A stretch of 64,000 nt of DNA from positions 110,454-174,453 of the forward strand of contig CAZUVH010000002.1 of assembly GCA_964623775.1 (NCBI GenBank). The letters run 5' to 3'. This DNA comes from an uncultured Candidatus Saccharibacteria bacterium (lineage in GTDB: Bacteria; Patescibacteriota; Minisyncoccia; Phycocordibacterales; UBA2100). Positions within the stretch are counted from its first letter, which is position 1. Each line of letters starts with the position of its first letter. The notes below the pieces were generated by a model. That model was given only the letters and a program-made list of their open reading frames with translations. It was not told the DNA's origin and made no database searches. Shown here one piece after another: positions 45,593 through 63,989 of the stretch. A program made the translations under genes and the position numbers.

Positions 45593-46909
45593 CTAGCCCG
45601 ACTTCGCCCACGCATTGGGGAGCGTCACGTAGAAGGTCGTCCCCTTACCCTCCGTCGATTCGAAACTAATGCCTCCGTGCACTTTCTCGATGATCGTCTT
45701 GATGACATAGAGCCCGAGGCCCGTGCCATCGACGACTGTCTTTTGTGCGTTGTCTGCGCGATAGAGCTTCTCGAAAATATGCTCACGTGCCGCTTTTGGA
45801 ATACCGATACCGGAGTCGGCGACGCGGATGAAGGTCTTGCCGTCGTCGCGGCCGTGGGATATCTCGAGCTCGACCGCACCGCCAGGAAGCGTGTATTTGA
45901 TCGCGTTGGTGAGGAGATTTTGGAAAATCATGCGCAGCAGATTTTTGTCGACCCTGACGCGCGGCAATCCGGCTTCGTACGTCTCTTTGATGGTGATGTT
46001 GCGTTCACGCGCAGAGTGACGCAGGCCGTCCACCATGCCTTTCCCGAATTCGATAATATCGAGATCCTCTGGCCGTACATCGAGCACATTGAGTTCGATG
46101 CGGGAAACGTTCAAAAGATCGTTTACGATCGCGATCATTTGCCTATTAGTCTCGTGGATACTGTTGACGTAGGTCTGTTGCTCTGGAGTAAGTGTGCCCT
46201 TGTCTCCCGAGAGTAGACCCTCGGCAAGCCACCCCACCGCAGTGAGCGGCGTCTTCAATTGGTGCGATGCGAGCGAGACGAATTCGGTCTTCGCACGATC
46301 GACTTCCATCTCCTTGGTGACGTCGTGCGCGATGCCTTGGATTTTTTGGGGCTTCTTGTCCGGCCCGAGTACCGTCGCGCCCTGGATGCGCAGATAACGT
46401 ACCTGACCAGAAGGAAGAGTCACGCGAAACGCGGGTATAGAGAAATCACCCGGCTGCGTCTGTGCCTTCTGCCAAAATTCGGTCACCATCGACCGGTCCT
46501 TTTCGTGCGTCATCGCGATAACCCTTTCGATCGTTGGTGCGTTTTGTTTGGGCACCAATCCGAAAAGGATGAACATCTCTTCAGACCAAAAGGAAAATCC
46601 GTTTTGAAAATCCCAGGTGAAGCTCCCGAATTGGCCGAATTTTTCGGCCTCGTTCAGCTTTGCAGTCACGGTATTGAAGCCTGTCATCAAACGATCGAAG
46701 CGACGTGTGGCACGCCAGCTTCCTGTCAGAAAGAATAGAAATGCAACAATCGCCAGAAGTCCACTAACGAGGAGTATGAAGTGTGGATCTACTTTCAATG
46801 CGTATACGATGTTTTGCACGAGCGTGCCGATATTCATGTACATATATTGTAACAGGGGCAAGCCGCATGAAAAGAAAACCCCGACAATAGTCGGGGTTTG
46901 ATACTTCAA
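45593..46909 (-). CDS. sensor histidine kinase with PAS domain
   Basis: N-terminal TM, PAS-like region, H-box (SHQLKTPLTAV), N-box (NLLTNAIKYT), G1 (DSGIGIP), G2 (GTGLGL). Confidence 0.85.
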   Translation of the reverse strand: MKYQTPTIVGVFFSCGLPLLQYMYMNIGTLVQNIVYALKVDPHFILLVSGLLAIVAFLFFLTGSWRATRRFDRLMTGFNTVTAKLNEAEKFGQFGSFTWDFQNGFSFWSEEMFILFGLVPKQNAPTIERVIAMTHEKDRSMVTEFWQKAQTQPGDFSIPAFRVTLPSGQVRYLRIQGATVLGPDKKPQKIQGIAHDVTKEMEVDRAKTEFVSLASHQLKTPLTAVGWLAEGLLSGDKGTLTPEQQTYVNSIHETNRQMIAIVNDLLNVSRIELNVLDVRPEDLDIIEFGKGMVDGLRHSARERNITIKETYEAGLPRVRVDKNLLRMIFQNLLTNAIKYTLPGGAVELEISHGRDDGKTFIRVADSGIGIPKAAREHIFEKLYRADNAQKTVVDGTGLGLYVIKTIIEKVHGGISFESTEGKGTTFYVTLPNAWAKSG

Positions 46910-47985
46910 AGAAACTTTTCTGGTTCTACGTAGGGCAAACCGAATGCATCGGCTACTCCACGATGGGTCACGTGTCCGTCGCAGATATTGAGACCTTTTC
47001 TCAGTGCCTCATCATCGATAAGAGCCCAATCACACCCCTTGTCCGCGATCGCGGTGATGTACGGAAGCGTCGCGTTCGTGAGCGCGCGCGTCGATGTACG
47101 CGGCACAGCGCCGGGCATATTTGTCACGCCATAGTGAATGATGCCATCCACCTCGTATACGGGATTTTCATGCGTCGTCGGACGAATGGTCTCGACGCAC
47201 CCGCCCTGATCGATCGCGATATCGACGATCACCGAACCTTTGCGCATGAGACCGAGGTCTCGTTTGCGAATGATTTTTGGCGCTTTCGCGCCCGGGACGA
47301 GCACGGCACCGATCAAGAGATCGGCATGAGCGATGTGTTCGAGAATCGTCTCACGAGTCGAGGGAACTGCGTTGAACCCCATATTCTTGATGTAACCAAG
47401 ACGAGAGGGCGATGTATCGAGGACGGTCACGTTGGCTCCGAGCTGCGCAGCAGCAGTCGCGGCACTTATGCCTGCAGTACCACCGCCAATAATGACGACT
47501 GATGCCTGCGGAACGTCCAGCATCCTGTTCAAAAGCAGATCGAGGTAATGAGCACCCTCGCGGATGGCAACATAACCCGCAACTTGCGACATCGGTGTGA
47601 GGAGCGGCAGCTCACCGCTTGCGAGCTGAACTGTTTCGTACGCAATGCATGTGGCGTCAGATTTGAGCATTGCTTCGGTCAGGGCGTAATCGGCTGCAAG
47701 ATGGAAATAGGTGAAGATCACCTGACGCTTTTGTATCCGACGCCACTCTTCATGGAGAGGTTCTTTAACCTTCACAATGAGTTCTGATTCCGCCCATACG
47801 TGCTGCGATGCACATGCATGAGCACCGGCATGGTCGTAGTCGGTATTTGAAAAGCCGCTTCCTTCTCCCGCTTCATACGCCACGAACACCTCGTGTCCTC
47901 TCGATACAAGTGCCGATGCGCCCGCAGGAGTAAGGGCGACGCGACGTTCGGAATTCTTGATTTCCTTGGGTACGCCTATGCGCAT
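46906..47985 (-). CDS. ald: alanine dehydrogenase
   Basis: MRIGVPKEIKNSERRVALTP N-terminus and GGGTAG Rossmann motif. Confidence 0.9.
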   Translation of the reverse strand: MRIGVPKEIKNSERRVALTPAGASALVSRGHEVFVAYEAGEGSGFSNTDYDHAGAHACASQHVWAESELIVKVKEPLHEEWRRIQKRQVIFTYFHLAADYALTEAMLKSDATCIAYETVQLASGELPLLTPMSQVAGYVAIREGAHYLDLLLNRMLDVPQASVVIIGGGTAGISAATAAAQLGANVTVLDTSPSRLGYIKNMGFNAVPSTRETILEHIAHADLLIGAVLVPGAKAPKIIRKRDLGLMRKGSVIVDIAIDQGGCVETIRPTTHENPVYEVDGIIHYGVTNMPGAVPRTSTRALTNATLPYITAIADKGCDWALIDDEALRKGLNICDGHVTHRGVADAFGLPYVEPEKFL

Positions 47986-49549: not shown

Positions 49550-50593
49550 ATGCGCATCGAAGAGGACGTAAAGTTGGATTACAAAGACGTACTTATTCGC
49601 CCCAAGCGCTCTACCCTATCCAGTCGAAGAGAAGTCGACATTACACGTGAGATTAAATTTAAGGCATCCGGCCAATCAGTGATTGGTGTACCTATCATTG
49701 CCGCCAACATGGACGGCGTCGGCACCTTCTCGATGGCACGCGTATTTCTCAAGCACAAAATGTTTGTTGCGTTGCACAAACACTACTCGGTGCCGGAATT
49801 GAAGAAATTTTTTGAGTCACTGAAGCGCACAGAAGCGCCGTACGTTTTCTATACGATGGGTATCAAGGATGAGGATGTGAAGAAACTCGATGCGCTTCTC
49901 AAGGTATGCGACGAAAAGTACATCCAGAGTATTTGCATCGATGTCGCCAATGGCTACACCGAGCGTTTTGTGGAATTTGCAAAAAAGCTCCGTAAACGCT
50001 TCCCCAAGAAAATCATCATGGCTGGCAATGTGGTGACGGGCGAGATCGTCGAAGAGCTTGCGCTCGCCGGAGTGGATATCATCAAGGTGGGGATCGGCCC
50101 CGGATCGGTGTGCACGACGCGCAAAATGACAGGCGTCGGCTACCCGCAGCTCTCGGCAGTGATCGAGTGTGCCGATGCGGCGCACGGAATCGGCGCGCAC
50201 ATCTGTGCCGACGGCGGCTGCCAAGCGCCGGGCGATGTGGCAAAAGCATTCGGCGGTGGCGGCGATTTTGTCATGATCGGCAGCATGCTTTCCGCCCACA
50301 AAGAATCGGAGCAGTCGATCGTGGAGCGAGGCGGCACTCAATATATAGAATATTACGGTTCGTCCTCACGGGAGGCCATGATGAAACACCACGGCGGCAT
50401 CGCCGAATATCGGGCAAGCGAAGGAAAGTCTGTCGCTGTCCCCTACAAAGGCCACGTCGAGAATACCTTGCAAGATATCCTCGGCGGATTGCGCTCTGCG
50501 TGCACCTATGTGGGCGCAAAGAAGCTCAAGGAACTCCCCAAACGCACCACCTTCATCCGTGTCACCCAGCAACTGAATCCGCAATACGACTAG
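49550..50593 (+). CDS. guaC: GMP reductase
   Basis: Near-identity to GuaC over full length ([23 protein letters not shown]..., [28 protein letters not shown]). Confidence 0.9.
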
Positions 50594-54339: not shown

Positions 54340-54565
54340 AACCGTCTCGTCGAGAACATTTTCATCAACAAGACGACAACGATGCGCGCCACCACTCTAA
54401 TACACATAGTTGGGGCACTCACCGCACGAGCTCACACAATCGACTATCTTCCGCATTTTCAAACTCCCTTTGAATCGCTGCGGAGAAGTTAATCGACCCC
54501 GACGATTGTGTCAAATAAAAAGGGCGAGTCGTGAGACTCGCCCTCGTGCTAAGTACTAAGCTAAC

Positions 54566-55690
54566 TCAGCGTGTGTAGTAATCCTTGAACGCTGCGACGG
54601 CATTCGTCGCGGCGGTGAGGAGATTGTCCCGCAAGCACAGCTCATCGCAGAGCATGAAATTGCGATAGCCGATCTCATACAGCCATGCAAGCTGCTCGAA
54701 GTCGGCGTCGGAAGGAACTTCATTGATCCCGATCGAATACTTGATCACGCCGTCGACGATCGAAGGAACCTTGTTGACCACCGAGAGCATCATGCGCGAT
54801 CCTGCGATCGCGTATGGATCTTTCTCGATGATCAATTTCTGTGCCTTGAGGATCTCGTGCGGCATATCGAGTTCGACATAGAGATCACCTTTTGCTGCAC
54901 AGAGCCGAAGATTGTCGCGTTTTTTGAATTCGCGCGCGACGTACTCCATACCCTGTTTACTCTCGATCTTGAGGACTACCTCTTCGTGCTTGCCGACGAG
55001 GTCCAGGAACTCATCGACGTCGCGCTGACTCTGCACATACGAGAGGAACCAGCGCACGATTCCGTGCTTTTTTACTTTCTGGATCTTCTCGAGCTCGAGA
55101 TCGGTAAATTGATTGCCGCCGACTCTGAGCGAGGCGTCGCGGATGTGCAACGATTCGCCCACACGCACGTCGTTGTACGGGCGGCAGTTGCCGGGAAACG
55201 CGAGCTGGTGGAACCAGCCGTCACCCGGTAGTGGCGCTTCAGGCGACCCATACCACTGCTTCCCGTCGCCGAGATTCGTCAGGAATCCACTGTCGGCACC
55301 AGCCTTAAAGAGGACGGGCGTCGGTACATTGACCCTGATCGGATGGTTGAGTTCGAATGCGAGCGCATTCGGATCATCGATGACCTTCGTGACGCGAAGT
55401 TGCCGACCCTTAATGTCGAAGTAGAGCGGCACTTTCACTCCCTGCGGAATGAGCGCGAGCTGTTTGTCAAGATCGAAGGTCGTAAGCATCGCACTGTTGA
55501 GACGGATGCCGGCAAGCCGCGTATCATTGATGAATTTCCCAAAGTGAGAAAAGCTCGGTAGAAGCGTGACCATGATCTCGAGTTCTTTCGGGATCAGCGG
55601 CGACTTCGGCTTGATGAGTGTAGTACTCTTCGTTCGCGGCTCTTGTCCAAAGATTCGGTCATACATTTTACTGCTGAATAAATCTTTCAT
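54566..55690 (-). CDS. divergent pyruvate-kinase-like TIM-barrel protein (no C-terminal PK domain)
   Basis: Collinear by eye with pyruvate kinase barrel: LYFDIKGRQLR ~ LLDTKGPEIR, VLKIESKQGMEYV ~ ISKIENQEGL, AAKGDLYVEL ~ VARGDLGVEI, AQKLIIEKD ~ AQKMMIEKC; AGGAGG SD before MKDLF start. Confidence 0.45.
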   Translation of the reverse strand: MKDLFSSKMYDRIFGQEPRTKSTTLIKPKSPLIPKELEIMVTLLPSFSHFGKFINDTRLAGIRLNSAMLTTFDLDKQLALIPQGVKVPLYFDIKGRQLRVTKVIDDPNALAFELNHPIRVNVPTPVLFKAGADSGFLTNLGDGKQWYGSPEAPLPGDGWFHQLAFPGNCRPYNDVRVGESLHIRDASLRVGGNQFTDLELEKIQKVKKHGIVRWFLSYVQSQRDVDEFLDLVGKHEEVVLKIESKQGMEYVAREFKKRDNLRLCAAKGDLYVELDMPHEILKAQKLIIEKDPYAIAGSRMMLSVVNKVPSIVDGVIKYSIGINEVPSDADFEQLAWLYEIGYRNFMLCDELCLRDNLLTAATNAVAAFKDYYTR

Positions 55691-55751
55691 GATGTCCTCC
55701 TGAATGAATTTGGGGAGGGCAACTTTGCCCTCCCCTTGTTGGTTTTCAATT

Positions 55752-56747
55752 TCACCATTCGTCGGTGGGCTTGCCGGCGCCAAGACCCTTGGTCGCCGAA
55801 TTTCCCGAACGCTTTTTGGTGCCCGATACTGTATCGGGCTTCGCAAGTGCATGAACTGTCTTCAAAGACCGATACACAGTGGCGACCTGTGTTGCATTCT
55901 GCCGCCCTTCGATCTCCTTGCGGAAATAGCCGACCTTGCCGACTTCCTGCGCGAGAAGTCCGAATATGACGTCGACAGCTCGATTTGCATCGGAGAGGAG
56001 TGCGATGCGTTCCGCGCCGACAAGAGTCTTCCAGCGGTCGTAGACTTGCTGCGTGACCGCCGGCAATGTATCGCCGGAGATCCGCTCGGAGCCATATGGC
56101 TTCAGAATAATGTATAGCGAATATTTCTCCATCGTCTGTTCGACGATCTCCTCGATCGTATGAGTCTTTTCGATGACGACCCTTGCATGCTTCTTTGCAT
56201 CCACTACCGTGATGCGTGCGCACGGCATTTCATCCGTGATGATGATGTACACCGGCTTGTTTTTCGCCTTTGGCATATGCGTATTGTGGATACGGTAGAG
56301 CATCGCGAGGCCATGAGCCTCGTGATACAGTGCCGACCCGCCTCCGCCGCCGACGTGCTGAATCTTGTCGAGTTCTTTCAGCATCTCCGGCCCATCCGCA
56401 AAGGGACGCATCTGAACAGGGTAGTCGTCCTCGAGATCGCAGAAGCCACCGAAACTGATCTTTGCGTCCTCGCCGAGATATTCTTTCTTCACCTCGTGCT
56501 CGAAGTACGGAGCCTTGACGAAGAACTGCTTGTCCCAGCCATCCATAGATCCGCTACCGTCCGAATCGATGCAGCACTGGCTGTCGCTGTCGGTCGAAAT
56601 GGAATCAGGTAGGAGCTTGGAAGCCGGTCCCGCTAATTGCGCTTTTGCGTAGCCTCGGCCGGCGTTTACGTCGTAATTTTGTCGTGCCTGATCGAAGTTG
56701 TGACCTTTCCAGTGCGTTGCCGGTGTGTAGTCGCCGTCTTCTGACAT
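55752..56747 (-). CDS. von Willebrand factor A (vWA) domain protein, TerY-like
   Basis: MIDAS-like IDSDGSGSM motif and Rossmann-like alternating pattern. Confidence 0.6.
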   Translation of the reverse strand: MSEDGDYTPATHWKGHNFDQARQNYDVNAGRGYAKAQLAGPASKLLPDSISTDSDSQCCIDSDGSGSMDGWDKQFFVKAPYFEHEVKKEYLGEDAKISFGGFCDLEDDYPVQMRPFADGPEMLKELDKIQHVGGGGGSALYHEAHGLAMLYRIHNTHMPKAKNKPVYIIITDEMPCARITVVDAKKHARVVIEKTHTIEEIVEQTMEKYSLYIILKPYGSERISGDTLPAVTQQVYDRWKTLVGAERIALLSDANRAVDVIFGLLAQEVGKVGYFRKEIEGRQNATQVATVYRSLKTVHALAKPDTVSGTKKRSGNSATKGLGAGKPTDEW

Positions 56748-56785: not shown

Positions 56786-57814
56786 TCAGGATAACCAATC
56801 TTTCCAGTTCGAGCGCGCTCTGCCGAAACTTTTCTCGCGAACCTTGTCGAATTTGGCGGAAAGTTCCGCCGCATCCCTCGGCCGGTTGAGGACGTTGTAT
56901 ACGACGAGTGATTTGATGAATTCACACATCGCGTCCGGCACATTGCTCGGCACTTGCTTCAGCCGTACCGCATCAATCTTTCCCGTCAGCGCATAGATCA
57001 TACACATACCGAGACTGTAGAGATCGGATTCGGGTACGAGCGTCTTACCCTCGATCTGTTCCGGTGGCGAGAAGATCTCCGTATAACCCTTGCTGCCGGT
57101 ATCGGCCGTCGGCTTTACCGACGAGAGTCCGAAATCGACGAGTTGTGCAATATGTTTCTCCGGCTGGAGAATGATGTTTTGCGGCTTCAAGTCCCCGTGC
57201 AAGATACCGTGACGATGGAGCCAGCCGAGTGTGTTGAGAACTCGATCAGCTATGGATGCCACGATCTCGGGGTCCCGCTTACCGTGTTTTTCGACGGCCT
57301 GTTCGAGTGTTGGGCCTTCCACCCAACTCATCACGAGCGCGAGTGCGCCATTGTCGAGCTCAATCACATCTCTCATGATTGGCAGCCCGTAGTGGCTGAG
57401 ATTCCAGATGGATTTCGCCTCTTGCTTGAGGATCTCTTCCGCAACGGGAGAGATCTCAGAACAGATCTTGACGCATGAAAGCTCGTCCAGCAGCTGATGC
57501 TGGGCTTTGTACGTCACTCCGAATCCTCCTTGCGCCACTTTGGCGATCTTGCGATAGGGACCGATCATGCCGCTTGAGTTCGACTTCGTTTTCCGATATT
57601 CATCGTATTCGCGACGCGACTTTGGATTGGCGATGATCTCATACGCTTCTGCTATCCGCTTCACATTCGATTCGGTCGCACCCGCGATGCGTGGGGCGTG
57701 AATTTTCAGAAGCGCCTTGTGAGCCACCTCAATGATCTCAATCTGGGACCTTGGATGCACCTGGAGCACCTTATAGAGATCCATATCGTACGCTGACGGA
57801 AAGGCATGGGACAT
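56786..57814 (-). CDS. Hanks-type Ser/Thr protein kinase with N-terminal degenerate J-domain
   Basis: N-terminus DLYKVLQV...KIHAPRIAG...YEIIANPKSRREYDEY matches J-domain helices with HPD replaced by HAPR; kinase motifs GGFGVTYKA, VKI, HGDLKPQNIIL, DFGLS, SPPE. Confidence 0.85.
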   Translation of the reverse strand: MSHAFPSAYDMDLYKVLQVHPRSQIEIIEVAHKALLKIHAPRIAGATESNVKRIAEAYEIIANPKSRREYDEYRKTKSNSSGMIGPYRKIAKVAQGGFGVTYKAQHQLLDELSCVKICSEISPVAEEILKQEAKSIWNLSHYGLPIMRDVIELDNGALALVMSWVEGPTLEQAVEKHGKRDPEIVASIADRVLNTLGWLHRHGILHGDLKPQNIILQPEKHIAQLVDFGLSSVKPTADTGSKGYTEIFSPPEQIEGKTLVPESDLYSLGMCMIYALTGKIDAVRLKQVPSNVPDAMCEFIKSLVVYNVLNRPRDAAELSAKFDKVREKSFGRARSNWKDWLS

Positions 57815-57948
57815 GAGTATCTTTCCTTATGTAGGAATCAAAGTACCTGCGGCGATACTACATCAAGAAAATGGCTTTAGTCAACGGTATAATTTGACTT
57901 TTTGGACAGTTCGTGTTTGATGCGCGCAGATCAAAAAGGGAGACCGCC

Positions 57949-58764
57949 ATGCCTTTGCGAGGTATCGTGAAAAAGGCGCAGGATCAGGGGCCGCGCAGCT
58001 ATCAGGAGGATTTCATCGTTCACATTCCATTCGATCTCCCCCATGAACGGGGACACCTTATTGGCGTGTTCGATGGTCATGGCGGCGTAGATGCCGCCAA
58101 AGTGTGCGCAGCAGCGACGCCAAAATTCTTTTCTCCAAATGGCAATGACGACGCGGGAGAACTGCTGCGTCATCTTGTTGGTGAACTGAATGTGCTCACG
58201 TGCGAAATGCAATGCGGGACGACGGTGTCGCTCGCGTGCATCCTCGAAACGAGCCGTACGGTGGTAACTGCGACACTTGGCGACTCACCGATCGTCGTTC
58301 GTGATGTGAATGGATTGATCCGGACGAACAATCCGCACAATGTACGGTCGAATGAATCAGAGCGTCGAACGGCAATTTTGCGGGGTGGTTGGTACAACGA
58401 CGAGGATGGCTACCTCGTCGACGCCAATGACCGCGACGGTCCCGGTCTTCAAACGACGCGCGGTCTTGGGGACCGTTGGCTTGGTAAAGTACTCAGCCGT
58501 GAACCGGAGATCGAAACGTACGGCATTGGGGACACAAGCGCGATCATCGTCGGCTCGGATGGCTTAATGGAACCGGAACGTCTTAATCGCTACGTGCGAC
58601 GCAAAGGCACAACTGATGCGAAACTATTCCTTGAGATGACGAACGCTGCTACGCAGGTCTCGAGCGCACGCGGACTAATCGATTGGAGAAAATCTCAGGA
58701 TGAGCTTGACGACAACACCTCCGCGATCGTCTGGCGTCCACGCCGTTGGTGGGAATTGTTCTGA
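57949..58764 (+). CDS. PP2C family Ser/Thr protein phosphatase
   Basis: GVFDGHGG, LGDS, RGLGD, VGSDGL metal-binding motifs; GGGAG SD before MPLRGI. Confidence 0.85.
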   Translation: MPLRGIVKKAQDQGPRSYQEDFIVHIPFDLPHERGHLIGVFDGHGGVDAAKVCAAATPKFFSPNGNDDAGELLRHLVGELNVLTCEMQCGTTVSLACILETSRTVVTATLGDSPIVVRDVNGLIRTNNPHNVRSNESERRTAILRGGWYNDEDGYLVDANDRDGPGLQTTRGLGDRWLGKVLSREPEIETYGIGDTSAIIVGSDGLMEPERLNRYVRRKGTTDAKLFLEMTNAATQVSSARGLIDWRKSQDELDDNTSAIVWRPRRWWELF

Positions 58765-58857: not shown

Positions 58858-60594
58858 TTACCTCATCCGCAAGCTCCACACGGCACCGTTGTGGATGTAC
58901 ATGACTTTGTCATCCCAATTGGCGAGTGCCATGTCGGTTGCAACCTGCTTATCCTTGATCTTGTTCACCGTACCGCTTCGCGGCACGAAGATCACAAGCT
59001 CGCCGTCTTCGACGATGGTAGCGCACACACCTTTTGGCAGTATCGCGATGTTCAGATCGGCATTGTCCGTGCCTCCCTGCCACAGCGTATAACTGCTGTA
59101 ATCAGCGCTGAAGCTGAGCTCGAATTTCCGGAATGCACCGGTTTTGTCGATTCCTGCGAGTGAGACGAAGCGGTTGCCCGCTTTGCCCGCAAGCAGCTTT
59201 ATGCCATCGAGCTCTCGCACACGCACCGAGATACAGGCACTTTCGCCAAATGGCAGCACGAGGAACTGTGCGCCGAGCGCATCCTGAACTCCGACGCCGT
59301 CGTACCATTTTGTGGACTGCGGCGAGAGAATCTGAGTGCGCCGTCCGATCGAAAGGAGCGGGCGACCCACCTGCAGAAGCTGCAACTCCATCAATTCGCT
59401 TTCGGCGACAAGGAACAGACGGTTTTCAAAACGCACCGTCTTGTAACCGTTTTGCGCGAGCGGAAGCGATTGCTGCACACGCGTGCGATCGTCGATGAAT
59501 GAGTATGCCGGTTTCCCGAGGACCCAGTCAGCGAGCAGCCATCCATTTTCGACTTTGACGACTTCGCCGTTGCCCGAGCTCATGCGTCCGATATCACGCT
59601 TGGTGGTGAGATCGACCACGATACCCGAGGCAAGAAGCACCGCACCGCACGGATAGATCCGTACGACAGCATCGCCTGCTTTTTCGAATATCTTTTCGAA
59701 CACGAGCGCTCCTGTAGCCGTCGTCGTGACCCTGAGAGTTCGGGCTGCCGCAGGAATTGCTGCGACGCCCTTATCGTAGGGTGATGGCGGCACTGTGCGC
59801 ACGCCTTTTTCAAATGTCGCTTCGTACCAACCGAGGAGGGCATTCGGAACGCATTTGAAATCGCGTACTGCCGCGTTGAGCCCTACACCATTGTGGAAGA
59901 CTGAGGCGTTCGCTTTCATTCGCGCTTCCATATCGCCCGGCTTAAATCCGCTGAGTGATCCCCGGTACGGATGGATGCCCGTGAATATCTGGAAGGTCAC
60001 GATTCCCCATGAGAACCAGTCAGAGAGTTTCGTGTATCCATTTGTATGCCAATCTTTGATGGACGGCATGATTGCTTTCGGACCAAATCGGCCGACAGCC
60101 CATGAATCCACATCAATGGCACGCGGCTCCGGGCCGTTTTTGCCTGCGAGGAACGCAATCCAGTTGAGCTCATTGGCATCGACCATGACCGCATTTCGAT
60201 CATGCGCGAAGACAGTCGTCTCGTGCATACGAGCGACAAGTGTATGTGCTTCACCATCACCAAACTTTTCGCGATTGCGAAACGCGTTGGTGAAGATGCG
60301 AGGCAGTGCCTCACCTTCCGCCCACGGCATGTAGATGCCGATCGGCTTACCCTTACCATCAGTCACGACGCCTTCCGGTGCCATGATGTACTGATGCTTG
60401 AGAGGCTTCAGCAGCTGGATCTTCTCCGCAATGCCGTCGCGTCGCATCTTGTCGGGATCAGTGTAGAGCTTAATGCTCGTACCCAAAGAGCGGTAGACCG
60501 ATGCTTCTCCGCCGCTCGCGACATAGTCGCTCGGGCGAAGTGTCAACGGTCCACGACCTTCGAGTTCTACTTTCAGGTTTCCACTTGGAGCCAT
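58858..60594 (-). CDS. atypical protein-kinase-like protein with about 330-aa C-terminal domain
   Basis: Gly loop ASGGEASVY, Lys in SIKLY, DANELN catalytic-loop-like, IDVDSW (DFG position), DWFSWGIVTFQIFTGIHPY (subdomain IX-like); C-terminal region of unknown fold. Confidence 0.55.
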   Translation of the reverse strand: MAPSGNLKVELEGRGPLTLRPSDYVASGGEASVYRSLGTSIKLYTDPDKMRRDGIAEKIQLLKPLKHQYIMAPEGVVTDGKGKPIGIYMPWAEGEALPRIFTNAFRNREKFGDGEAHTLVARMHETTVFAHDRNAVMVDANELNWIAFLAGKNGPEPRAIDVDSWAVGRFGPKAIMPSIKDWHTNGYTKLSDWFSWGIVTFQIFTGIHPYRGSLSGFKPGDMEARMKANASVFHNGVGLNAAVRDFKCVPNALLGWYEATFEKGVRTVPPSPYDKGVAAIPAAARTLRVTTTATGALVFEKIFEKAGDAVVRIYPCGAVLLASGIVVDLTTKRDIGRMSSGNGEVVKVENGWLLADWVLGKPAYSFIDDRTRVQQSLPLAQNGYKTVRFENRLFLVAESELMELQLLQVGRPLLSIGRRTQILSPQSTKWYDGVGVQDALGAQFLVLPFGESACISVRVRELDGIKLLAGKAGNRFVSLAGIDKTGAFRKFELSFSADYSSYTLWQGGTDNADLNIAILPKGVCATIVEDGELVIFVPRSGTVNKIKDKQVATDMALANWDDKVMYIHNGAVWSLRMR

Positions 60595-61442
60595 CAGACG
60601 TCTCCTTCTTGGTGTTCGACGCGCACCATCGCATAGGCGATGTCGTCGAGCGGCCCTTTGCCTACCTTGCGCGCGTCTTTAACAAACGCATTCAGGCGTC
60701 GTTTAACGAAGACGCCTTCGACACCTTTGAACGCGAGCAGTTGCAGCACTACGTCTTTCCAATCCACTCCCTCGACCTGCGTGACGCCGTCGCTGAATAC
60801 AGCGACAAATGAGACTTGTTCCGGTGACAGATTCAAGGTAACACCCTGAATTCCCGCCGCGACCGTCAATTCACTTGCGAATGACTCTCCGGTCGATTTA
60901 TTCCACGTTTCCCATCTGAGCGCCTGCTTATATGCACCACCGTGAGTCTTTATGAATGACTCGTATCCGTCGGTACTGTAGGCAGGATAGAGAGGAGTAT
61001 TGTTGGTCCAATCGAAACGATGGAGAAACATCTCCCCATTCCTAAAAATGACCGCAACGACACCGTCGCCGCGAACATTTACAACGCATGTCTCTTGTGA
61101 CATGGCCACATACGAACACGTGGCAAGCATGTCACTCGTCTCAAGCTGAAGCTTGTTTTTCACAGCGTTCATAGTGCTCTGCTGATGGTCATTGATGAAC
61201 CCTGCCGCATCAAGAGAGAGTAAAAACGATTGCCAATTCTTACGAATCGCCGTTGCCGTCGTATGGGTCACTATTCGCGCACCCACATCGGTGTGTCCAC
61301 CACTTGAGCACCCGTCGGAGACGATCGCGTATGCGACGCCATCGTGAATTCCTGAGAGCGAGTGATCCTGACATGGTTTGCCGGAGATCACGTGATGGTG
61401 ACCGATCAGGAAGTGATCATCCGTATGGAATTTCAACTTCAT
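60594..61442 (-). CDS. PP2C-like phosphatase
   Basis: CQD..., VSDGCSSGGHTD (DGxGG-like), VRGDGVV, VFSDGV motifs in PPM order. Confidence 0.55.
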   Translation of the reverse strand: MKLKFHTDDHFLIGHHHVISGKPCQDHSLSGIHDGVAYAIVSDGCSSGGHTDVGARIVTHTTATAIRKNWQSFLLSLDAAGFINDHQQSTMNAVKNKLQLETSDMLATCSYVAMSQETCVVNVRGDGVVAVIFRNGEMFLHRFDWTNNTPLYPAYSTDGYESFIKTHGGAYKQALRWETWNKSTGESFASELTVAAGIQGVTLNLSPEQVSFVAVFSDGVTQVEGVDWKDVVLQLLAFKGVEGVFVKRRLNAFVKDARKVGKGPLDDIAYAMVRVEHQEGDV

Positions 61443-61513
61443 TGCATTTCCCCTTCTTCAGAAAAGAATAAGGGAGGGAGCTGTGCCCCCTCCCCGTGGT
61501 TGCCGGCCATCGA

Positions 61514-62269
61514 TCAGATGGCGGCGGCGATAGCTTGACTTGGTCCGCCCGTGCCCTGCGCGAGCGCCTGGCTCGAGACAGACTGCGAGACGAACGCGGC
61601 GAGCTTCGCGAGATTGCGCTCGGTCGCGTCGCCGGCCTTCCGATAGTGCGTCATGCCGGTCTTCTGCTGGAACGCCTGCAACGTCGCATCGTACTGGTCG
61701 GTATTGATGCCGACGAGAATCGAGATCAGGGATTCGAGCTTCTCGCTCGTGACCGCCTGCTCGAGCGCCTTCTTCAGTGCCGCTTCCGTCATCGTGGAAT
61801 CGAGCTCTGCACCATCAGAGAAGGTGAAGAGGATTCCATTCGCTCCGTAGTCGTTCTTCGCAAGCTCCTCGGCGTAGGTCAGTGTCGCTCCGACGCCTGA
61901 ATAACAGCCGTCGATAAGCGGAGTGCCACCGCCGATCTTGATGGAATCGTAGACAGTTTCGTCGATGTCCGCGAGTGGCTTGAAGCCATGGATCTCGATG
62001 ACACCCTTGTCGGCTCGCGTGGTAAACACGATTGCACGCACCATGATGTTGTCGGACATCGGATTCTTGCGACAGGCACCGACGGCCATCTTGACCATCT
62101 TGATGATTTCACCCCGGTACGGGATGACCGAGCTGCTGCCGTCGATCGCGAAGGTGACGAGCGTGTAGGTGCTCGCGCCGAGCCTGTCGAAGCGAGCGCC
62201 GGTAAATGCGAATCCGCCTTTGCCCGCGATGTTGAATTCCTGCATATCGTCTTGGTCGAGACGAGGCAT
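61514..62269 (-). CDS. vWA domain protein, TerY-like
   Basis: Start at MPRLDQDD with AAGGAGAT SD; MIDAS VTFAIDGSSSV; vWA-like alternating pattern. Confidence 0.6.
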   Translation of the reverse strand: MPRLDQDDMQEFNIAGKGGFAFTGARFDRLGASTYTLVTFAIDGSSSVIPYRGEIIKMVKMAVGACRKNPMSDNIMVRAIVFTTRADKGVIEIHGFKPLADIDETVYDSIKIGGGTPLIDGCYSGVGATLTYAEELAKNDYGANGILFTFSDGAELDSTMTEAALKKALEQAVTSEKLESLISILVGINTDQYDATLQAFQQKTGMTHYRKAGDATERNLAKLAAFVSQSVSSQALAQGTGGPSQAIAAAI

Positions 62270-62352
62270 AGTGGTATCTCCTTGCTGTTGCTGGTAGGTA
62301 GTTCTGCTGCGGGCGGAATTGCCCGCAGCCGTTGTTGCGATTGTGATTCCGA

Positions 62353-63270
62353 TTACGCGAGGAAGTCGGTCGACTTCATCAGCGTCATGCCGCGCGCTTC
62401 CATGTCTTTCAGGAATTGCGCTGCGATGGCGGGGAAGTCGACGACATTCGGGATCGCCGGTACGGGCGACATACAGTCGGTGAGAAGAATCATCTTCTTC
62501 ACGTGCTCGTCGCCGATGTTGTCGGCGATCTGCTCGACGGTACGCTTCACACAATGACTCGATGCCCAGCCCGCGACGCCGATCATATCGGCCTTCTGGA
62601 GCGTAGTAACGAGTCCCCCGTTCAGCTGCGTCGAAGGATCGTCCGGATCGACGACTTCCGCCATGAGGCCGCCGAAGTGCTCGCGCCACACGTTGGAACC
62701 CTTGGTGACCTTATTGGCAACACCCATGTACTTGCGTTCCCAACGCGTAACGGCGGCTTCGACATCGGACTGGACTCCGTGGCCCCACGTGCCGATACGG
62801 CAGTGCGGCGGCCAGATCGTGTGCTTGAAGGGACTTGTTGCTTCGAGCGCGACAAGATATTCCTGCTGGCGTTTTTGGTAAGCCGGATTGCGAGCGCGCC
62901 ACATGCCGGCCTTCATGTTGTCGGCCGTGATCATGGTGAACGGCCCCGGCGGTCTGCCGTTGTCGTCGCGCCACATATCAGGATGTCCGATATGCATCAC
63001 ATGATGCGAGTCGAGCGTTTCGTGGATGTCGTTCAGTTTGTGACCGACGCGATCGATAAGCGCCGCGAGGCGCTTGGCATCGGAAACAGCGCCCTTGACG
63101 GGGAGTGCCGCGACGTTCAGGGTCGAAGGAAGATCCTTGACCTTCATGTCGGACGAACGGATGTCACCACTGAGAATCGTCTCGGTGAGCGGACTGCCGT
63201 CGTCGTTGCCCATGAAGTCGTTCTGCGGGTCGACGATGAAAAGGTCGACCTTGAGAGTGCCTCTCGACAT
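62353..63270 (-). CDS. isochorismatase-family cysteine hydrolase (nicotinamidase-like)
   Basis: DLFIVDPQNDFMG N-terminal motif and catalytic-Cys region GWASSHCVKRTV. Confidence 0.55.
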   Translation of the reverse strand: MSRGTLKVDLFIVDPQNDFMGNDDGSPLTETILSGDIRSSDMKVKDLPSTLNVAALPVKGAVSDAKRLAALIDRVGHKLNDIHETLDSHHVMHIGHPDMWRDDNGRPPGPFTMITADNMKAGMWRARNPAYQKRQQEYLVALEATSPFKHTIWPPHCRIGTWGHGVQSDVEAAVTRWERKYMGVANKVTKGSNVWREHFGGLMAEVVDPDDPSTQLNGGLVTTLQKADMIGVAGWASSHCVKRTVEQIADNIGDEHVKKMILLTDCMSPVPAIPNVVDFPAIAAQFLKDMEARGMTLMKSTDFLA

Positions 63271-63443
63271 AGTGCTTCTCCAAGCTTGCAAGACCCGTTC
63301 AACTTCGGTGGGTCTTATAACCGTTTGTATTTCAAAGAACCTTGGTCCATGCCATATGCACTGACCTAGTGTATAAAATACACTAAGTAAAATACATTGC
63401 AAGGAGCTGCAGAAATCTACAATATTCGTCTAAAATGTCAACC

Positions 63444-63491: not shown

Positions 63492-63989
63492 TTACGGGCG
63501 TTTTGCGACGAGACGTGCTGCTTCGGAGATGATCTGTGTTGTCGAGGTGTGCTCGACGACATCACGAATAATCTTGATCTTGCCGGCGTGTTCCCTCCCG
63601 ACGATTTCCGCTTCCCGACCGACAAAAGCATCGTTTTTGAAAATAAAGTCGGGCTTTATGATGCGCGAAATCGTCCCATGATCGGCAAGGGAATGCATGA
63701 TGAATGCGAAGGCGACAGGCTTCAGCGCGTCTACCATCTGGACACGACGGGAGTCGTAAATGATGGGACGCCCTTCACCTTTCCGCTCACGTACCAATTC
63801 ATCAGAATCGATCCCGACGAAAAGAATGTCGCAGTCGCGCCGGCACCGCGTGAAAAAAAGCACGTGGTGATAGTGCAGGAGATCGTACGAACCGGTCGCG
63901 AGGCCGACAGACTTGCCCGACATACGCGCCTGATTGAGATACGTCTCGATGACGCTGATAGCATCCGTGTCGTGAAGATCGAATTGCAT
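63492..63989 (-). CDS. cytidylyltransferase-like nucleotidyltransferase (HxGH family)
   Basis: GLATGSYDLLHYHHV (HxGH-type motif) in a 165-aa Rossmann-like protein. Confidence 0.6.
   Translation of the reverse strand: MQFDLHDTDAISVIETYLNQARMSGKSVGLATGSYDLLHYHHVLFFTRCRRDCDILFVGIDSDELVRERKGEGRPIIYDSRRVQMVDALKPVAFAFIMHSLADHGTISRIIKPDFIFKNDAFVGREAEIVGREHAGKIKIIRDVVEHTSTTQIISEAARLVAKRP

Follow-up and report, generated by a model that had tools for sequence, protein, structure and literature searches.

Organization of the locus

On the minus strand of the window, i.e., the whole 64-kb stretch of DNA analysed here, we found a cluster of three genes that encode a J-domain Ser/Thr kinase, a vWA/MIDAS protein, and, last in order, a pyruvate kinase (PK)-like protein (Table 1). 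The genes are separated by gaps of 38 nt (kinase to vWA) and 61 nt (vWA to PK-like) and are bracketed by a promoter-like site and a terminator. The promoter match is weak when taken alone, since a single match was found where 2.6 were expected in shuffled sequences, and the hairpin within the 61-nt spacer is not a sense-strand terminator, as no T-run follows it on the coding strand.

Table 1. Genes and sequence features at the locus, in window coordinates.
Feature	Position	Strand	Remarks
Intrinsic-terminator-like hairpin	54520..54545	-	11-bp stem and T-run, 20 nt past the PK-like stop; operon end
PK-like enzyme gene	54566..55690	-	374 aa; A-domain (beta/alpha)8 barrel and B-domain lid, without C domain
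AGGAGG ribosome-binding site of the PK-like gene	55696..55701	-	5 nt 5' of ATG 55690; read directly from the sequence
G+C-rich hairpin	55712..55735		10 bp; inside the vWA/PK-like spacer (listed on the + strand)
vWA/MIDAS protein gene	55752..56747	-	331 aa; motifs D63-x-S/T-G-S67-M and ITDE (alignments)
J-domain and Hanks-type Ser/Thr kinase gene	56786..57814	-	342 aa; catalytic motifs intact
Sigma-70-like promoter match	57855..57884	-	5' of the kinase gene; consensus match
PP2C phosphatase gene	57913..58764	+	divergent from the trio; Pfam PP2C E=1.3e-13; accessory in this sub-clade

The longest ORF listed for the PK-like gene on the minus strand would encode 428 aa (54566..55852). The start is likely the internal ATG at 55690, because the strong ribosome-binding site already pointed out in the preliminary description of this DNA lies five bases before it and a longer 5' version would run into the gene upstream. 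A protein of 374 aa is likewise obtained from an independent gene call made on a public contig.

The vWA protein has a conserved N-terminal peptide (MSExxDYTPAPW) and a C-terminal tail that is basic and disordered and contains a conserved G-x-S. Its AlphaFold2 (AF2) model (pLDDT 80.8) was matched best by Foldseek to integrin beta I-like, i.e., vWA-fold, domains (E ~1e-6). The signs of a TerY-like identity are mixed: the vWA fold and the DxS/TGSM and TDE motifs are present, but no Pfam or PADLOC model matched the protein. The kinase matches Pfam Pkinase (E=7e-30) and, at its N-terminus, DnaJ (E=4.8e-8, 33.4 bits against a cut-off of 27.8); the approximately 60 residues past the Pfam kinase match are too short for a recognised extra domain. 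The HPD tripeptide of J domains is needed to stimulate Hsp70. In the window kinase this motif is degenerate (HAPR), and it is retained in 32 of 55 kinase homologues and lost in the other 23, the window kinase included; therefore, a link to Hsp70 is not general. Immediately upstream of the cluster, a second triad is present in the classical order vWA-PP2C-kinase (58858-62278).

A divergent PK-type protein without a C domain

The PK-like gene encodes a real, very divergent PK-type protein that has lost its regulatory domain, and, judged from sequence comparison, its resemblance to PK far exceeds chance. The Pfam PK model (PF00224) matches it with E=1.4e-7 and 31.4 bits, a narrow margin above the gathering cut-off of 30, and the match is partial, covering only profile positions 172-270 of 328. 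All five NCBIfam pyk models score far below their cut-offs (e.g., 25.5 bits against 306.4 for TIGR01064). In BLASTP, residues 84-305 align with residues 58-285 of E. coli PykF (E=1e-6), and comparison of the family profile with PykF by hhalign gives a probability of 94.5%. The same profile matched 94 PDB sequences, and all 60 that were listed are PKs. Structural comparison points the same way: the AF2 model (pLDDT 91.1) has PKs as its best 50 Foldseek matches (E ~1e-16, 14-17% identity to solved PKs), the order of strands and helices is that of PK, and an all-beta insertion (residues 99-182) follows beta3, placing a B domain between beta3 and alpha3 of the (beta/alpha)8 A domain as in PK. An A barrel with a B domain after beta3 is thus common to the window protein and to PKs proper (EC 2.7.1.40; E. 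coli PykF, yeast, Leishmania). Membership in the HpcH/HpaI aldolase or CitE (citrate lyase beta) family, whose barrels belong to the same PEP/pyruvate superfamily, was considered and rejected: none of the HpcH/HpaI models matched in the Pfam search even at E<=10, and the barrel of that family has no B domain.

The preliminary description had proposed a highly divergent protein collinear with the PK barrel that ends where the C-terminal regulatory domain would begin, and all of this holds. The motifs that it named are present, i.e., DIKGRQLR (92-99), KIESKQG (241-247), AAKGDLYVEL (265-274), and AQKLIIEK (283-290), and so are, in collinear order, the PK motifs TxxP, RLN, DxKGxxxR, KIE, [RK]GDLxVE, [ST]-x-M/L-L-S, and ML-x-x-E. 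The chain stops directly after barrel helix alpha8 in the AF2 model, and the terminator follows, which indicates that the C domain is truly absent rather than separately encoded. The protein has no PK_C (PF02887) match, and we found no conserved downstream gene among the homologue loci. A downstream ORF of 123 aa was rejected as a split C domain, as it has no Pfam match and is not kept beside homologues.

Residue invariance was judged on 40 members of the family, in which R63, N65, D92, K94, R99, K241, E243, D269, S298, and E350 are all invariant, the catalytic Lys, Glu, and Asp (K241, E243, and D269) among them. We take these residues to be equivalent, in this order, to R72, N74, D112, K114, R119, K269, E271, D295, T327, and E363 of rabbit PK, where Lys269 is the catalytic residue, Glu271 and Asp295 the Mg2+ ligands, and Arg72/Asn74/Asp112/Lys114/Arg119 the phosphate/nucleotide residues. 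K241, E243, D269, S298, and E350 map to K220, E222, D246, T278, and E314 of PykF (hhalign and BLASTP), with S298 a conservative T-to-S change, and D92-R99 aligns with PykF D66-R73 in BLASTP; the equivalence of R63 and N65 comes from the RLN motif, which closes predicted beta2, and is less well supported. Most of the invariant functional residues are also kept in a sister subfamily, in which G268 is replaced by D and E350 is not conserved. It is very improbable that the protein is a catalytically dead PK fold serving as a metabolite sensor or as a scaffold for the kinase. Extreme divergence, the loss of the C domain, and the signalling context would fit such a role, but the full catalytic set (R, N, D, K, K, E, D, S) is invariant across CPR, DPANN, and the sister subfamily, which is the signature of an active enzyme.

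The K+ site is altered. The K+ loop reads DIKGRQLRV in the family and DTKGPEIRT in K+-dependent PKs. The K+ site positions are occupied by A67, I/V93, Q97, and V/I100 with an invariant R96, in place of the signature Ser76/Thr113/Glu117/Thr120; hydrophobic residues occupy PK positions 113 and 120, a trait shared with K+-independent PKs, and the residue at 116 is an invariant Arg (for the signatures of the two types, see PMC8835810 and PMC4374775). The family matches neither the E117 nor the K117 class of PKs (PMC8835810) exactly. The changes relative to PK comprise S76 to A, H77 to M, T113 to I/V, P116 to R, E117 to Q, T327 to S, and S361-G362 to C-D. Judged by alignment, PK residues H77 and K206 are not conserved in the family, and R96, Q97, Y271, R299, C348, D349, and C352, located in or beside PK active-site motifs, are invariant and family-specific; accordingly, the phosphoryl acceptor could differ from ADP.

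Conservation and distribution of the trio

The association with the adjacent vWA and kinase genes, noticed in the window at the outset, extends to a conserved three-gene operon. The trio is complete and in the same order in 74 of 80 distinct loci, the vWA gene adjoins the PK-like gene in 77, and the kinase is nearby in 75, across CPR bacteria and DPANN archaea and thus two domains of life. There is no fourth conserved gene. The best candidates, which encode MetRS and a PhoU-like protein, were rejected, as even these most frequent of the other neighbour families reach only 11 of 93 loci and reflect local archaeal synteny. The pairwise-identity matrices of the three proteins are correlated (Mantel r 0.48-0.71, p=0.001), which suggests that the trio is co-inherited.

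PK-like homologues share 42-64% identity with the window protein and are sporadic in Patescibacteria (CPR) and DPANN archaea. A search of 185,579 species genomes with two nearly invariant family motifs gave 98 pattern matches, and about 77 of these genomes carry the family; among 1.84 billion proteins, there are 147 cluster representatives at E<=1e-30. Archaeal and bacterial copies are cleanly apart in a rough tree. Contigs of 607 kb and 1.24 Mb are among those that carry the trio. The searchable literature, including that on Archaeon GW2011_AR15 (CP010425.1) and PDB 8iw2, yielded no account of the module.

Canonical PK is found in approximately one third of CPR genomes (PMC7304191) and in a minority of Nanobdellota, e.g., K00873 in 39 of 123 Woesearchaeales (bioRxiv 10.64898/2026.05.13.725050). 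The PK-like protein might therefore be a streamlined housekeeping glycolytic PK that fills this "missing pyk" gap under regulation by the kinase and the vWA protein, although we regard this as unlikely. In favour of such a role, the catalytic residues are conserved, and the authors of the CPR study considered that divergent enzymes may have escaped their HMMs (PMC7304191). No canonical pyk was found in the window or in the ±10 kb flanks of about 180 fetched loci, a search of low power. Short PKs may exist, as a 321-residue Entamoeba histolytica PK chain (PDB 8iw2) suggests, but this eukaryotic protein shows no greater sequence similarity than full-length PKs do and is missing from the 60 best listed PDB matches of the family profile. 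The Entamoeba enzyme is not known to have a vWA or kinase partner. Against a housekeeping role, the family is far too rare to account for such a gap despite its nearly invariant search motifs, and a fixed kinase/vWA linkage amid otherwise changing surroundings is unexpected for a glycolytic gene. In addition, the trio occurs on a contig deposited as Pacearchaeota (L057), and the Nanobdellota preprint reports that none of the complete genomes of Pacearchaeales encodes the greater part of the upstream pathway from which PEP would come (bioRxiv 10.64898/2026.05.13.725050). The PK-like enzyme is thus probably not an ordinary glycolytic pyk, and the proposal in the preliminary description that it might have a new specificity or be a non-glycolytic paralogue is compatible with these data.

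The signalling partners raise a further possibility, i.e., a TerY-P-type conflict or stress system in which the PK-like protein is an effector that, once the kinase is triggered, drains PEP or nucleotides or makes or destroys a nucleotide-like signal. Triads of vWA, Ser/Thr kinase, and PP2C proteins are a known signalling/anti-phage module (PMC11090510). In the account of Anantharaman et al. (2012) given there, TerY-P consists of a TerY-like vWA protein, a PP2C, and a Ser/Thr kinase. Going by that account, the trio likewise co-encodes a vWA/MIDAS protein with a Hanks-type kinase, joined by PP2C in the window and four other loci; it differs in that the third partner is PP2C in TerY-P and the PK-like enzyme here, and in that TerY-P kinases carry a C-terminal zinc ribbon or OB fold, whereas the trio kinase has an N-terminal J domain instead. 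The adjoining triad of classical order, the sporadic distribution of the family, and matches of the kinase to PADLOC kinase models such as PD-T4-6 agree with a conflict role. However, these kinase matches are generic, and PADLOC matched none of the PK-like, vWA, and PP2C proteins, on which grounds a known defence system was rejected. Homologous PP2C genes lie within ±10 kb of the trio in only five of 80 loci (the window, L008, L013, L050, and L056), the flanking genes are mostly housekeeping genes rather than defence islands, and the clean split between archaeal and bacterial copies is unlike that of highly mobile defence genes. The presence of the trio on IMG/VR contigs would also be odd for host defence, if these contigs are truly viral. 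Overall, we consider a conflict role improbable.

Possible functions and related loci

The reading that we favour, with a probability of roughly 0.45, is that the PK-like protein is a minimal, accessory PEP-dependent phosphotransferase and that the vWA partner and Ser/Thr phosphorylation stand in, in trans, for its lost regulatory domain. In this reading, the trio is a sporadic accessory unit of CPR and DPANN rather than their general glycolytic PK. Built only of the A barrel and the B lid, the enzyme has most likely kept the capacity to bind Mg2+ together with phosphoenolpyruvate or pyruvate, and it would pass the phosphoryl group on to a nucleoside diphosphate, for example ADP or GDP. The K+ site is apparently replaced by a built-in positive charge, R96. 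In ordinary PKs, the C domain provides allosteric control and tetramer contacts; here, this role may pass in trans to the two co-transcribed proteins. The MIDAS metal site of the vWA protein could grip an acidic residue of another protein, for which the PK-like enzyme is the most plausible candidate, and the Hanks-type kinase with its J-like domain might switch the association or activity of the vWA-enzyme pair, opposed by the PP2C phosphatase in some lineages. We infer the substrate, the reaction direction, the K+ independence, the phospho-switch, and, from gene linkage only, the vWA-enzyme contact.

Systems in which a vWA adaptor acts with a remodelling partner include the CbbO/CbbQ Rubisco activase, NorD/NorQ, and MoxR-vWA pairs. 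As an analogy only, these likewise have a MIDAS vWA gene beside a putative target enzyme and a factor for conformational change. In the trio, this factor would be a J-domain protein that recruits Hsp70, together with phosphorylation. The trio includes no AAA+ ATPase, and in about 40% of members the J domain no longer has its HPD motif.

CPR and DPANN account for much of microbial diversity, and how they acquire ATP and control this process is poorly understood. The family defines a compact PK catalytic core that scarcely reaches standard annotation thresholds or falls below them and that, in bacteria and archaea alike, is tied into one fixed unit with a MIDAS adaptor and a kinase of eukaryotic type. 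Compared with PK, it is set apart by its tie to vWA and Ser/Thr kinase genes and its confinement to CPR and DPANN. It would offer a concrete and testable case of lost C-domain allostery being replaced in trans by a partner protein and phosphorylation, and it cautions that a gene labelled "pyruvate kinase" in these organisms need not point to glycolysis.

The sister subfamily is closer to PykF, i.e., more PK-like, than the window subfamily and is likewise paired with a vWA gene. Its members have NMNAT-like, NadE, NAD kinase (NADK), NUDIX, and adenylosuccinate synthetase (AdSS) genes as neighbours in several differing same-strand arrangements, such as NMNAT-like-vWA-PKL-NadE and NadE-NUDIX-NMNAT-like-STK-vWA-PKL-NADK. 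These NAD and purine neighbours consume ATP or GTP. Neither a phosphoribosyltransferase nor a riboside kinase was found among the hmmsearch matches or Pfam-annotated recurrent clusters in the sister flanks, a survey that covers labelled ORFs and the larger clusters. A corresponding NAD/purine link was rejected for the window subfamily, in which homologues of NadE, AdSS, NMNAT-like, NADK, or NUDIX genes occur in about 12 of 93 loci, not clearly above chance, and are absent from the window.

It is conceivable, though doubtful, that the PK scaffold was recruited to other chemistry, either with a non-nucleotide acceptor, which might be a pyridine or purine riboside but also a protein such as the vWA partner, or in a pyruvate/oxaloacetate lyase- or decarboxylase-type reaction in NAD/purine salvage. 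The invariant R96, R299, Y271, and C348-D-E-L-C352, the substitutions at G268 and E350 in the sister subfamily, and the embedding of the latter in NAD operons whose annotated flank genes include no phosphoribosyltransferase or riboside kinase are all in line with such a change. On the other hand, the PK residues for PEP, Mg2+, and phosphoryl transfer are all kept together with the nucleotide-closing B lid, unchanged chemistry is the simplest reading, and the NAD context is not conserved in the window subfamily.

In a more speculative extension of the phosphotransferase reading, to which we give little weight, the vWA and PK-like proteins would form an unrecognised two-subunit CPR/DPANN enzyme, gated by the J-domain Ser/Thr kinase, in which PEP drives nucleotide/NAD salvage from host-derived precursors. 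PEP could then regenerate GTP/ATP for adenylosuccinate synthetase, NMNAT, NadE, and NAD kinase, or the enzyme might directly phosphorylate a pyridine or purine riboside. The NAD/purine operons of the sister subfamily hint at a connection, possibly a new one, between PEP and the salvage of cofactors, and, if the salvage reading is true, the pair would be a new energy-coupling module tailored to ultra-small symbionts.

Finally, the PK-like query matched 19 contigs in IMG/VR (4-436 kb), 17 of which carry the full trio. These could be huge phages or misclassified CPR/DPANN DNA. The ±10 kb flanks of the IMG/VR loci contain no capsid, portal, or terminase genes, and the genes found there include those for aminoacyl-tRNA synthetases, EF-G, Thg1, DNA ligase, and ThyA.

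Identity and active site of the pyruvate kinase-like protein

By all available measures, the window protein is pyruvate kinase (PK)-like. PK (PF00224) was its sole Pfam match (E=1.4e-7; 31.4 bits, gathering score 30; profile positions 172-270), and neither HpcH/HpaI nor any other barrel family in Pfam matched even at E<=10. A phmmer search of PDB sequences led to pyruvate kinases, with yeast PK ranking first (E=9e-5), and a profile of 40 family members gave 94 PDB matches at E<=0.001, the best 60 of which were all PKs. Against E. coli PykF (reference sequence from NC_000913.3), hhalign gave the family a probability of 94.5%, and BLASTP aligned residues 84-305 with PykF 58-285 (E=1e-6), from the DxKGxxxR loop through the entire B domain to strand 7. 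The four PK motifs quoted in the preliminary description, DIKGRQLR, KIESKQG, AAKGDLYVEL and AQKLIIEK, were all found, at residues 92-99, 241-247, 265-274 and 283-290. The AlphaFold2 model, computed from the family alignment, is confident (pLDDT 91.1, pTM 0.87), and its best 50 Foldseek matches in the PDB were all pyruvate kinases (E ~1e-16). The elements of the model follow the PK order, beta1-alpha1-beta2-alpha2-beta3, an all-beta insertion and alpha3 through alpha8, and the insertion after beta3 (residues 99-182) is the B "lid", so that the fold is that of PK. Two insertions peculiar to the sub-clade of the window protein, a B-domain loop (residues ~140-160) and a beta-hairpin between strand 7 and helix 7 (residues ~303-325, predicted with high confidence), are absent from most homologues.

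The protein is thus a member of the PK superfamily, passing the Pfam threshold by a narrow margin, but it differs from bona fide pyk products in falling below the NCBIfam equivalog thresholds and in lacking both the C domain and the K+ signature. The NCBIfam pyk models were its only matches there, all far under their cut-offs. It is therefore a divergent PK-family variant and not a "pyruvate kinase" as annotation uses the term. The longest mechanical open reading frame (54566-55852, 428 aa) would run about 100 nt into the upstream gene; the 374-aa reading is also given by an independent gene call on a public contig that contains this very sequence, and the AGGAGG ribosome-binding site reported earlier lies just before its start (see table). 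The same description held that the protein stops where the regulatory domain would begin, and indeed the modeled chain ends at alpha8, with an intrinsic terminator 20 nt downstream of the stop codon. A 123-aa downstream ORF was considered as a separate C domain and rejected: Pfam gave it no match, and homologues of the PK-like gene do not keep it as a neighbour. The regulatory C domain is therefore genuinely missing.

Residues equivalent to the PK catalytic set are invariant across the 40-sequence family alignment. With rabbit-muscle PK numbers in parentheses, these are R63 and N65 (R72 and N74; a weaker assignment, from the RLN motif ending predicted beta2); D92, K94 and R99 by BLASTP (D112, K114 and R119; PykF D66, K68 and R73); and, by hhalign, K241 and E243 (K269 and E271; PykF K220 and E222), G268-D269 (G294-D295; PykF D246), S298 (T327; PykF T278) and E350 (E363; PykF E314). 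The catalytic Lys, Glu and Asp are thus present as K241, E243 and D269. R63, N65, D92, K94, K241, E243, D269 and S298 stay invariant even when a far more distant sister subfamily is added, which argues for an active enzyme that would use Mg2+ together with a substrate resembling PEP or pyruvate. A dead PK-fold sensor is accordingly very improbable, given this invariant set.

The K+ site has changed relative to PK (S76 to A67, T113 to I/V93, E117 to Q97), and an invariant Arg, R96, occupies the P116 position, where it may supply positive charge in place of K+. This is a third pattern, matching neither the T113/K114/E117/T120 signature of K+-dependent PKs nor the L113/Q114/K117/(L,I,V)120 signature of K+-independent ones (PMC8835810; PMC4374775). 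Within or next to the PK active-site motifs are further residues that are both family-specific and invariant (Y271, R299 and the C348-D-E-L-C352 motif), and by alignment PK H77 and K206 are not conserved. The phosphoryl-donor half of the active site thus looks unchanged, while the acceptor half is less certain; a changed chemistry on the PK scaffold, with the donor residues retained, is rather improbable.

A conserved kinase-vWA-PK-like gene trio

In the window, the PK-like gene is preceded by genes for a vWA/MIDAS protein and a J-domain Ser/Thr kinase. The gaps between them are short (38 nt for kinase-vWA and 61 nt for vWA-PK-like), and the group opens with a promoter-like site before the kinase gene and closes with a terminator after the PK-like gene, so that all three appear to be transcribed together. 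The protein encoded in the middle had no Pfam or PADLOC match, but its earlier label as vWA proved right: the family alignment contains D63-x-[ST]-G-S67-M and I-T-D-E motifs, and the best structural matches of its model (pLDDT 80.8) are integrin beta I-like domains. Its N-terminal peptide, MSExxDYTPAPW, is conserved, as is a G-x-S in its basic, disordered tail. In the kinase, all catalytic motifs are intact (G-rich loop, VCIK, HGDxKPxN, VDxG and PE).

Features of the window around the PK-like gene
Feature	Position	Strand	Remarks
Alanine dehydrogenase (pyruvate <-> alanine)	46906-47985	-	4-8 kb from PK-like gene
GMP reductase/IMPDH-family gene	49550-50593	+	4-8 kb from PK-like gene
PK-like gene	54566-55690	-	374 aa from ATG at 55690
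AGGAGG ribosome-binding site	55701-55696	-	5-nt spacer before ATG at 55690
G+C hairpin	55712-55735		10 bp, GGGGAGGGCA...TGCCCTCCCC
vWA protein	55752-56747	-	331 aa; directly upstream of PK-like gene
J-domain kinase	56786-57814	-	342 aa; Pfam N-terminal DnaJ E=4.8e-8, protein kinase E=7e-30
PP2C phosphatase	57913-58764	+	divergent from trio
Second triad	58858-62278	-	adjoins upstream
Second triad, kinase-like protein	58858-60594	-	578 aa; large C-terminal extension
Second triad, PP2C_2 phosphatase	60594-61442	-	
Second triad, vWA protein	start ~62278	-	MPRLDQ...; MIDAS-like D-G-S-S-S and SDG motifs
349-aa protein	62353-63402	-	DPQNDF and SSHC motifs
Cytidylyltransferase-like protein (PF01467)	63492-63989	-	165 aa; just upstream of signalling genes

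To count the trio, profiles of its proteins were run against six-frame ORFs of all loci fetched around homologues (±10 kb), 80 of which were distinct and had sufficient upstream DNA. The vWA gene lies immediately upstream on the same strand in 77/80, a J-kinase gene is nearby in 75 (same strand in 71 of these), and both accompany the PK-like gene in 74/80, bearing out the suspected link to the adjoining genes. PP2C occurred within the fetched flanks at only 5/80 loci. Clustering of all flanking ORFs gave no fourth conserved gene; the next commonest families, MetRS and PhoU-like, reached 11/93 loci, and other flanks vary by locus and are mainly housekeeping genes. The pairwise-identity matrices of the three proteins are correlated (Mantel r=0.56, 0.48 and 0.71; p=0.001 each), indicating that the trio is, on sequence divergence, inherited as a unit. 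As far as genomic context can tell, the linkage shows that the three proteins act together, and it is silent on binding and phosphorylation partners. The HPD tripeptide of the J domain is retained in 32 of 55 full-length kinases and lost in 23, including that of the window, where K-I-H-A-P-R (residues ~35-45) stands in its place, as in its two closest homologues (L008 and L077). A link to Hsp70 is thus plausible in many members but is not required of all.

A word-indexed search gave 916 relatives of 306-409 aa from Patescibacteria, mostly unnamed or "hypothetical" and in a few cases named "pyruvate kinase". When 1.84 billion cluster representatives were searched exhaustively with the profile, only 147 matched at E<=1e-30 and 1391 at E<=0.001, so the family is small and well apart from the bulk of canonical PKs. 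Scanning one genome for each of 185,579 species with two near-invariant motifs yielded 98 matching stretches, 77 of which code for a relative (75 distinct loci), nearly all with 42-64% identity to the window protein and 38% in the most divergent (L076). The hosts belong to many lineages of CPR bacteria (Adler-, Davies-, Nealson-, Uhr-, Falkow-, Collier-, Sungii- and Saccharibacteria, and Paceibacterota) and, unexpectedly, to DPANN archaea (Woesearchaeota, Pacearchaeota and Nanoarchaeota, besides Archaeon GW2011_AR15, where the gene lies on a complete chromosome). With a diphthamide-synthesis gene and genes for ribosomal protein S7, ribonucleotide reductases and ThyA as neighbours, the AR15 locus belongs to a real archaeal chromosome. 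A rough neighbour-joining tree splits the copies into an archaeal and a bacterial clade, which would fit a single old inter-domain transfer with patchy retention and not rampant recent exchange.

The PK-like query also matched 19 IMG/VR contigs classed as viral (4-436 kb; L083-L101), 17 with the full trio and two short ones with fragments only. Their flanks encode aminoacyl-tRNA synthetases, EF-G, Thg1, ATP-dependent DNA ligase, ThyA, tRNA nucleotidyltransferase and ADP-ribosylglycohydrolase, and no capsid, portal or terminase was found within ±10 kb; these contigs may represent either huge phages or CPR/DPANN DNA that was wrongly classified.

Among other features of the window, the strong hairpin between the vWA stop and the PK-like ribosome-binding site has no T-run 3' on the coding strand and may act in mRNA processing or stability or in translational coupling. 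The second triad has the classical TerY-P order (vWA, PP2C_2, kinase-like); its vWA protein has no Pfam or PADLOC match, and a homologue of its kinase-like protein also lies beside the trio at another locus (L033). The 349-aa protein has no Pfam match, and its motifs presumably resemble those of the isochorismatase/nicotinamidase family. There is no evidence for linkage of the alanine dehydrogenase and GMP reductase/IMPDH-family genes with the PK-like gene.

Proposed function

In canonical PK, the C domain contains the allosteric site and contributes half of the interface that forms the tetramer. The parsimonious reading is that the PK-like protein is a PEP:NDP phosphotransferase cut down to its catalytic core. 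Since the C domain is absent and two proteins that could exert control are fixed to the gene, we propose that the lost control might be replaced in trans by the MIDAS adaptor and the Ser/Thr kinase, with PP2C in some lineages. The vWA protein would bind or tether the enzyme via its MIDAS site, and phosphorylation would turn the association on or off, a reading to which we give a probability of about 0.45. The preliminary description had cautiously offered a new-specificity PEP/pyruvate enzyme or a non-glycolytic paralogue, possibly regulated by phosphorylation; its PK-like observation is confirmed, and profile, fold, invariant catalytic residues and conserved operon support its hedged interpretation; a new specificity or a non-glycolytic role is consistent with these data. 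What is new is a conserved three-gene module spanning Bacteria and Archaea, evidence against an ordinary glycolytic role, and the setting of the sister subfamily among NAD and purine genes.

That the gene is an ordinary housekeeping pyk seems unlikely. The idea has some appeal, as canonical PK is reported from only about one third of CPR genomes, with divergent forms allowed for (PMC7304191), but with ~77 carriers among 185,579 species genomes the family is much too rare to fill this gap, and so strict an operon is unexpected for a housekeeping gene. The trio also occurs on a contig deposited as Pacearchaeota (L057), and according to a recent preprint Pacearchaeales PK calls come from genomes unable to form PEP by glycolysis (bioRxiv 10.64898/2026.05.13.725050). 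The trio further resembles the TerY-P triad (PMC11090510), although its constant third member is the PK-like enzyme instead of PP2C and its kinase differs by the J domain. That the trio serves in conflict or stress in the manner of TerY-P, the PK-like enzyme being its effector, is in our estimate quite unlikely. PADLOC has no model that matches the PK-like or vWA protein, and the kinase matches generic kinase models only. No description of the module was found in the open-access literature.

The sister subfamily and its NAD/purine context

The exhaustive profile search also revealed the sister subfamily (~300 aa, 26-34% identity to the window protein), with motifs DLKGRQLR, KIES, LMAARDDL and ASRI, which is nearer to E. 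coli PykF than the window's own subfamily (phmmer E=1e-17 to 1e-10). Scanning metagenomes turned up 508 members, and in 80 fetched loci (metagenome contigs L102-L181) the enzyme was called in 69. A gene of the vWA sequence cluster is present in 58/69, typically ~1 kb upstream on the same strand, with a Ser/Thr kinase (STK) upstream in about 22. Same-strand arrays, with PKL for the PK-like gene, include NMNAT-like (CTP_transf_like)-vWA-PKL-NadE, STK-vWA-PKL-adenylosuccinate synthetase (AdSS), NadE-NUDIX-NMNAT-like-STK-vWA-PKL-NAD kinase(-NUDIX) and NadE-x-STK-vWA-PKL-AdSS. The recurrence of the same gene set in differing orders argues for a probable functional link of the vWA and PK-like pair to ATP-/GTP-consuming NAD/purine salvage enzymes, although neighbour conservation is partly synteny inside single lineages. 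This link is not conserved in the window's subfamily (~12/93 loci, none within the window), so the sister context is a hint about chemistry and not evidence on the window's gene. The 165-aa cytidylyltransferase-like protein of the window has no detectable homology to the NMNAT-like gene of the sister operons.

One locus deposited as uncultured Candidatus Saccharibacteria (L059), where no kinase was detected, carries both subfamilies in tandem: vWA-vWA-PKL (sister)-adenylosuccinate synthetase, then vWA-PKL (window's subfamily). The 321-residue chain of an Entamoeba histolytica PK (PDB 8iw2_A) aligns end to end with the sister subfamily and may be a naturally C-domain-less PK.
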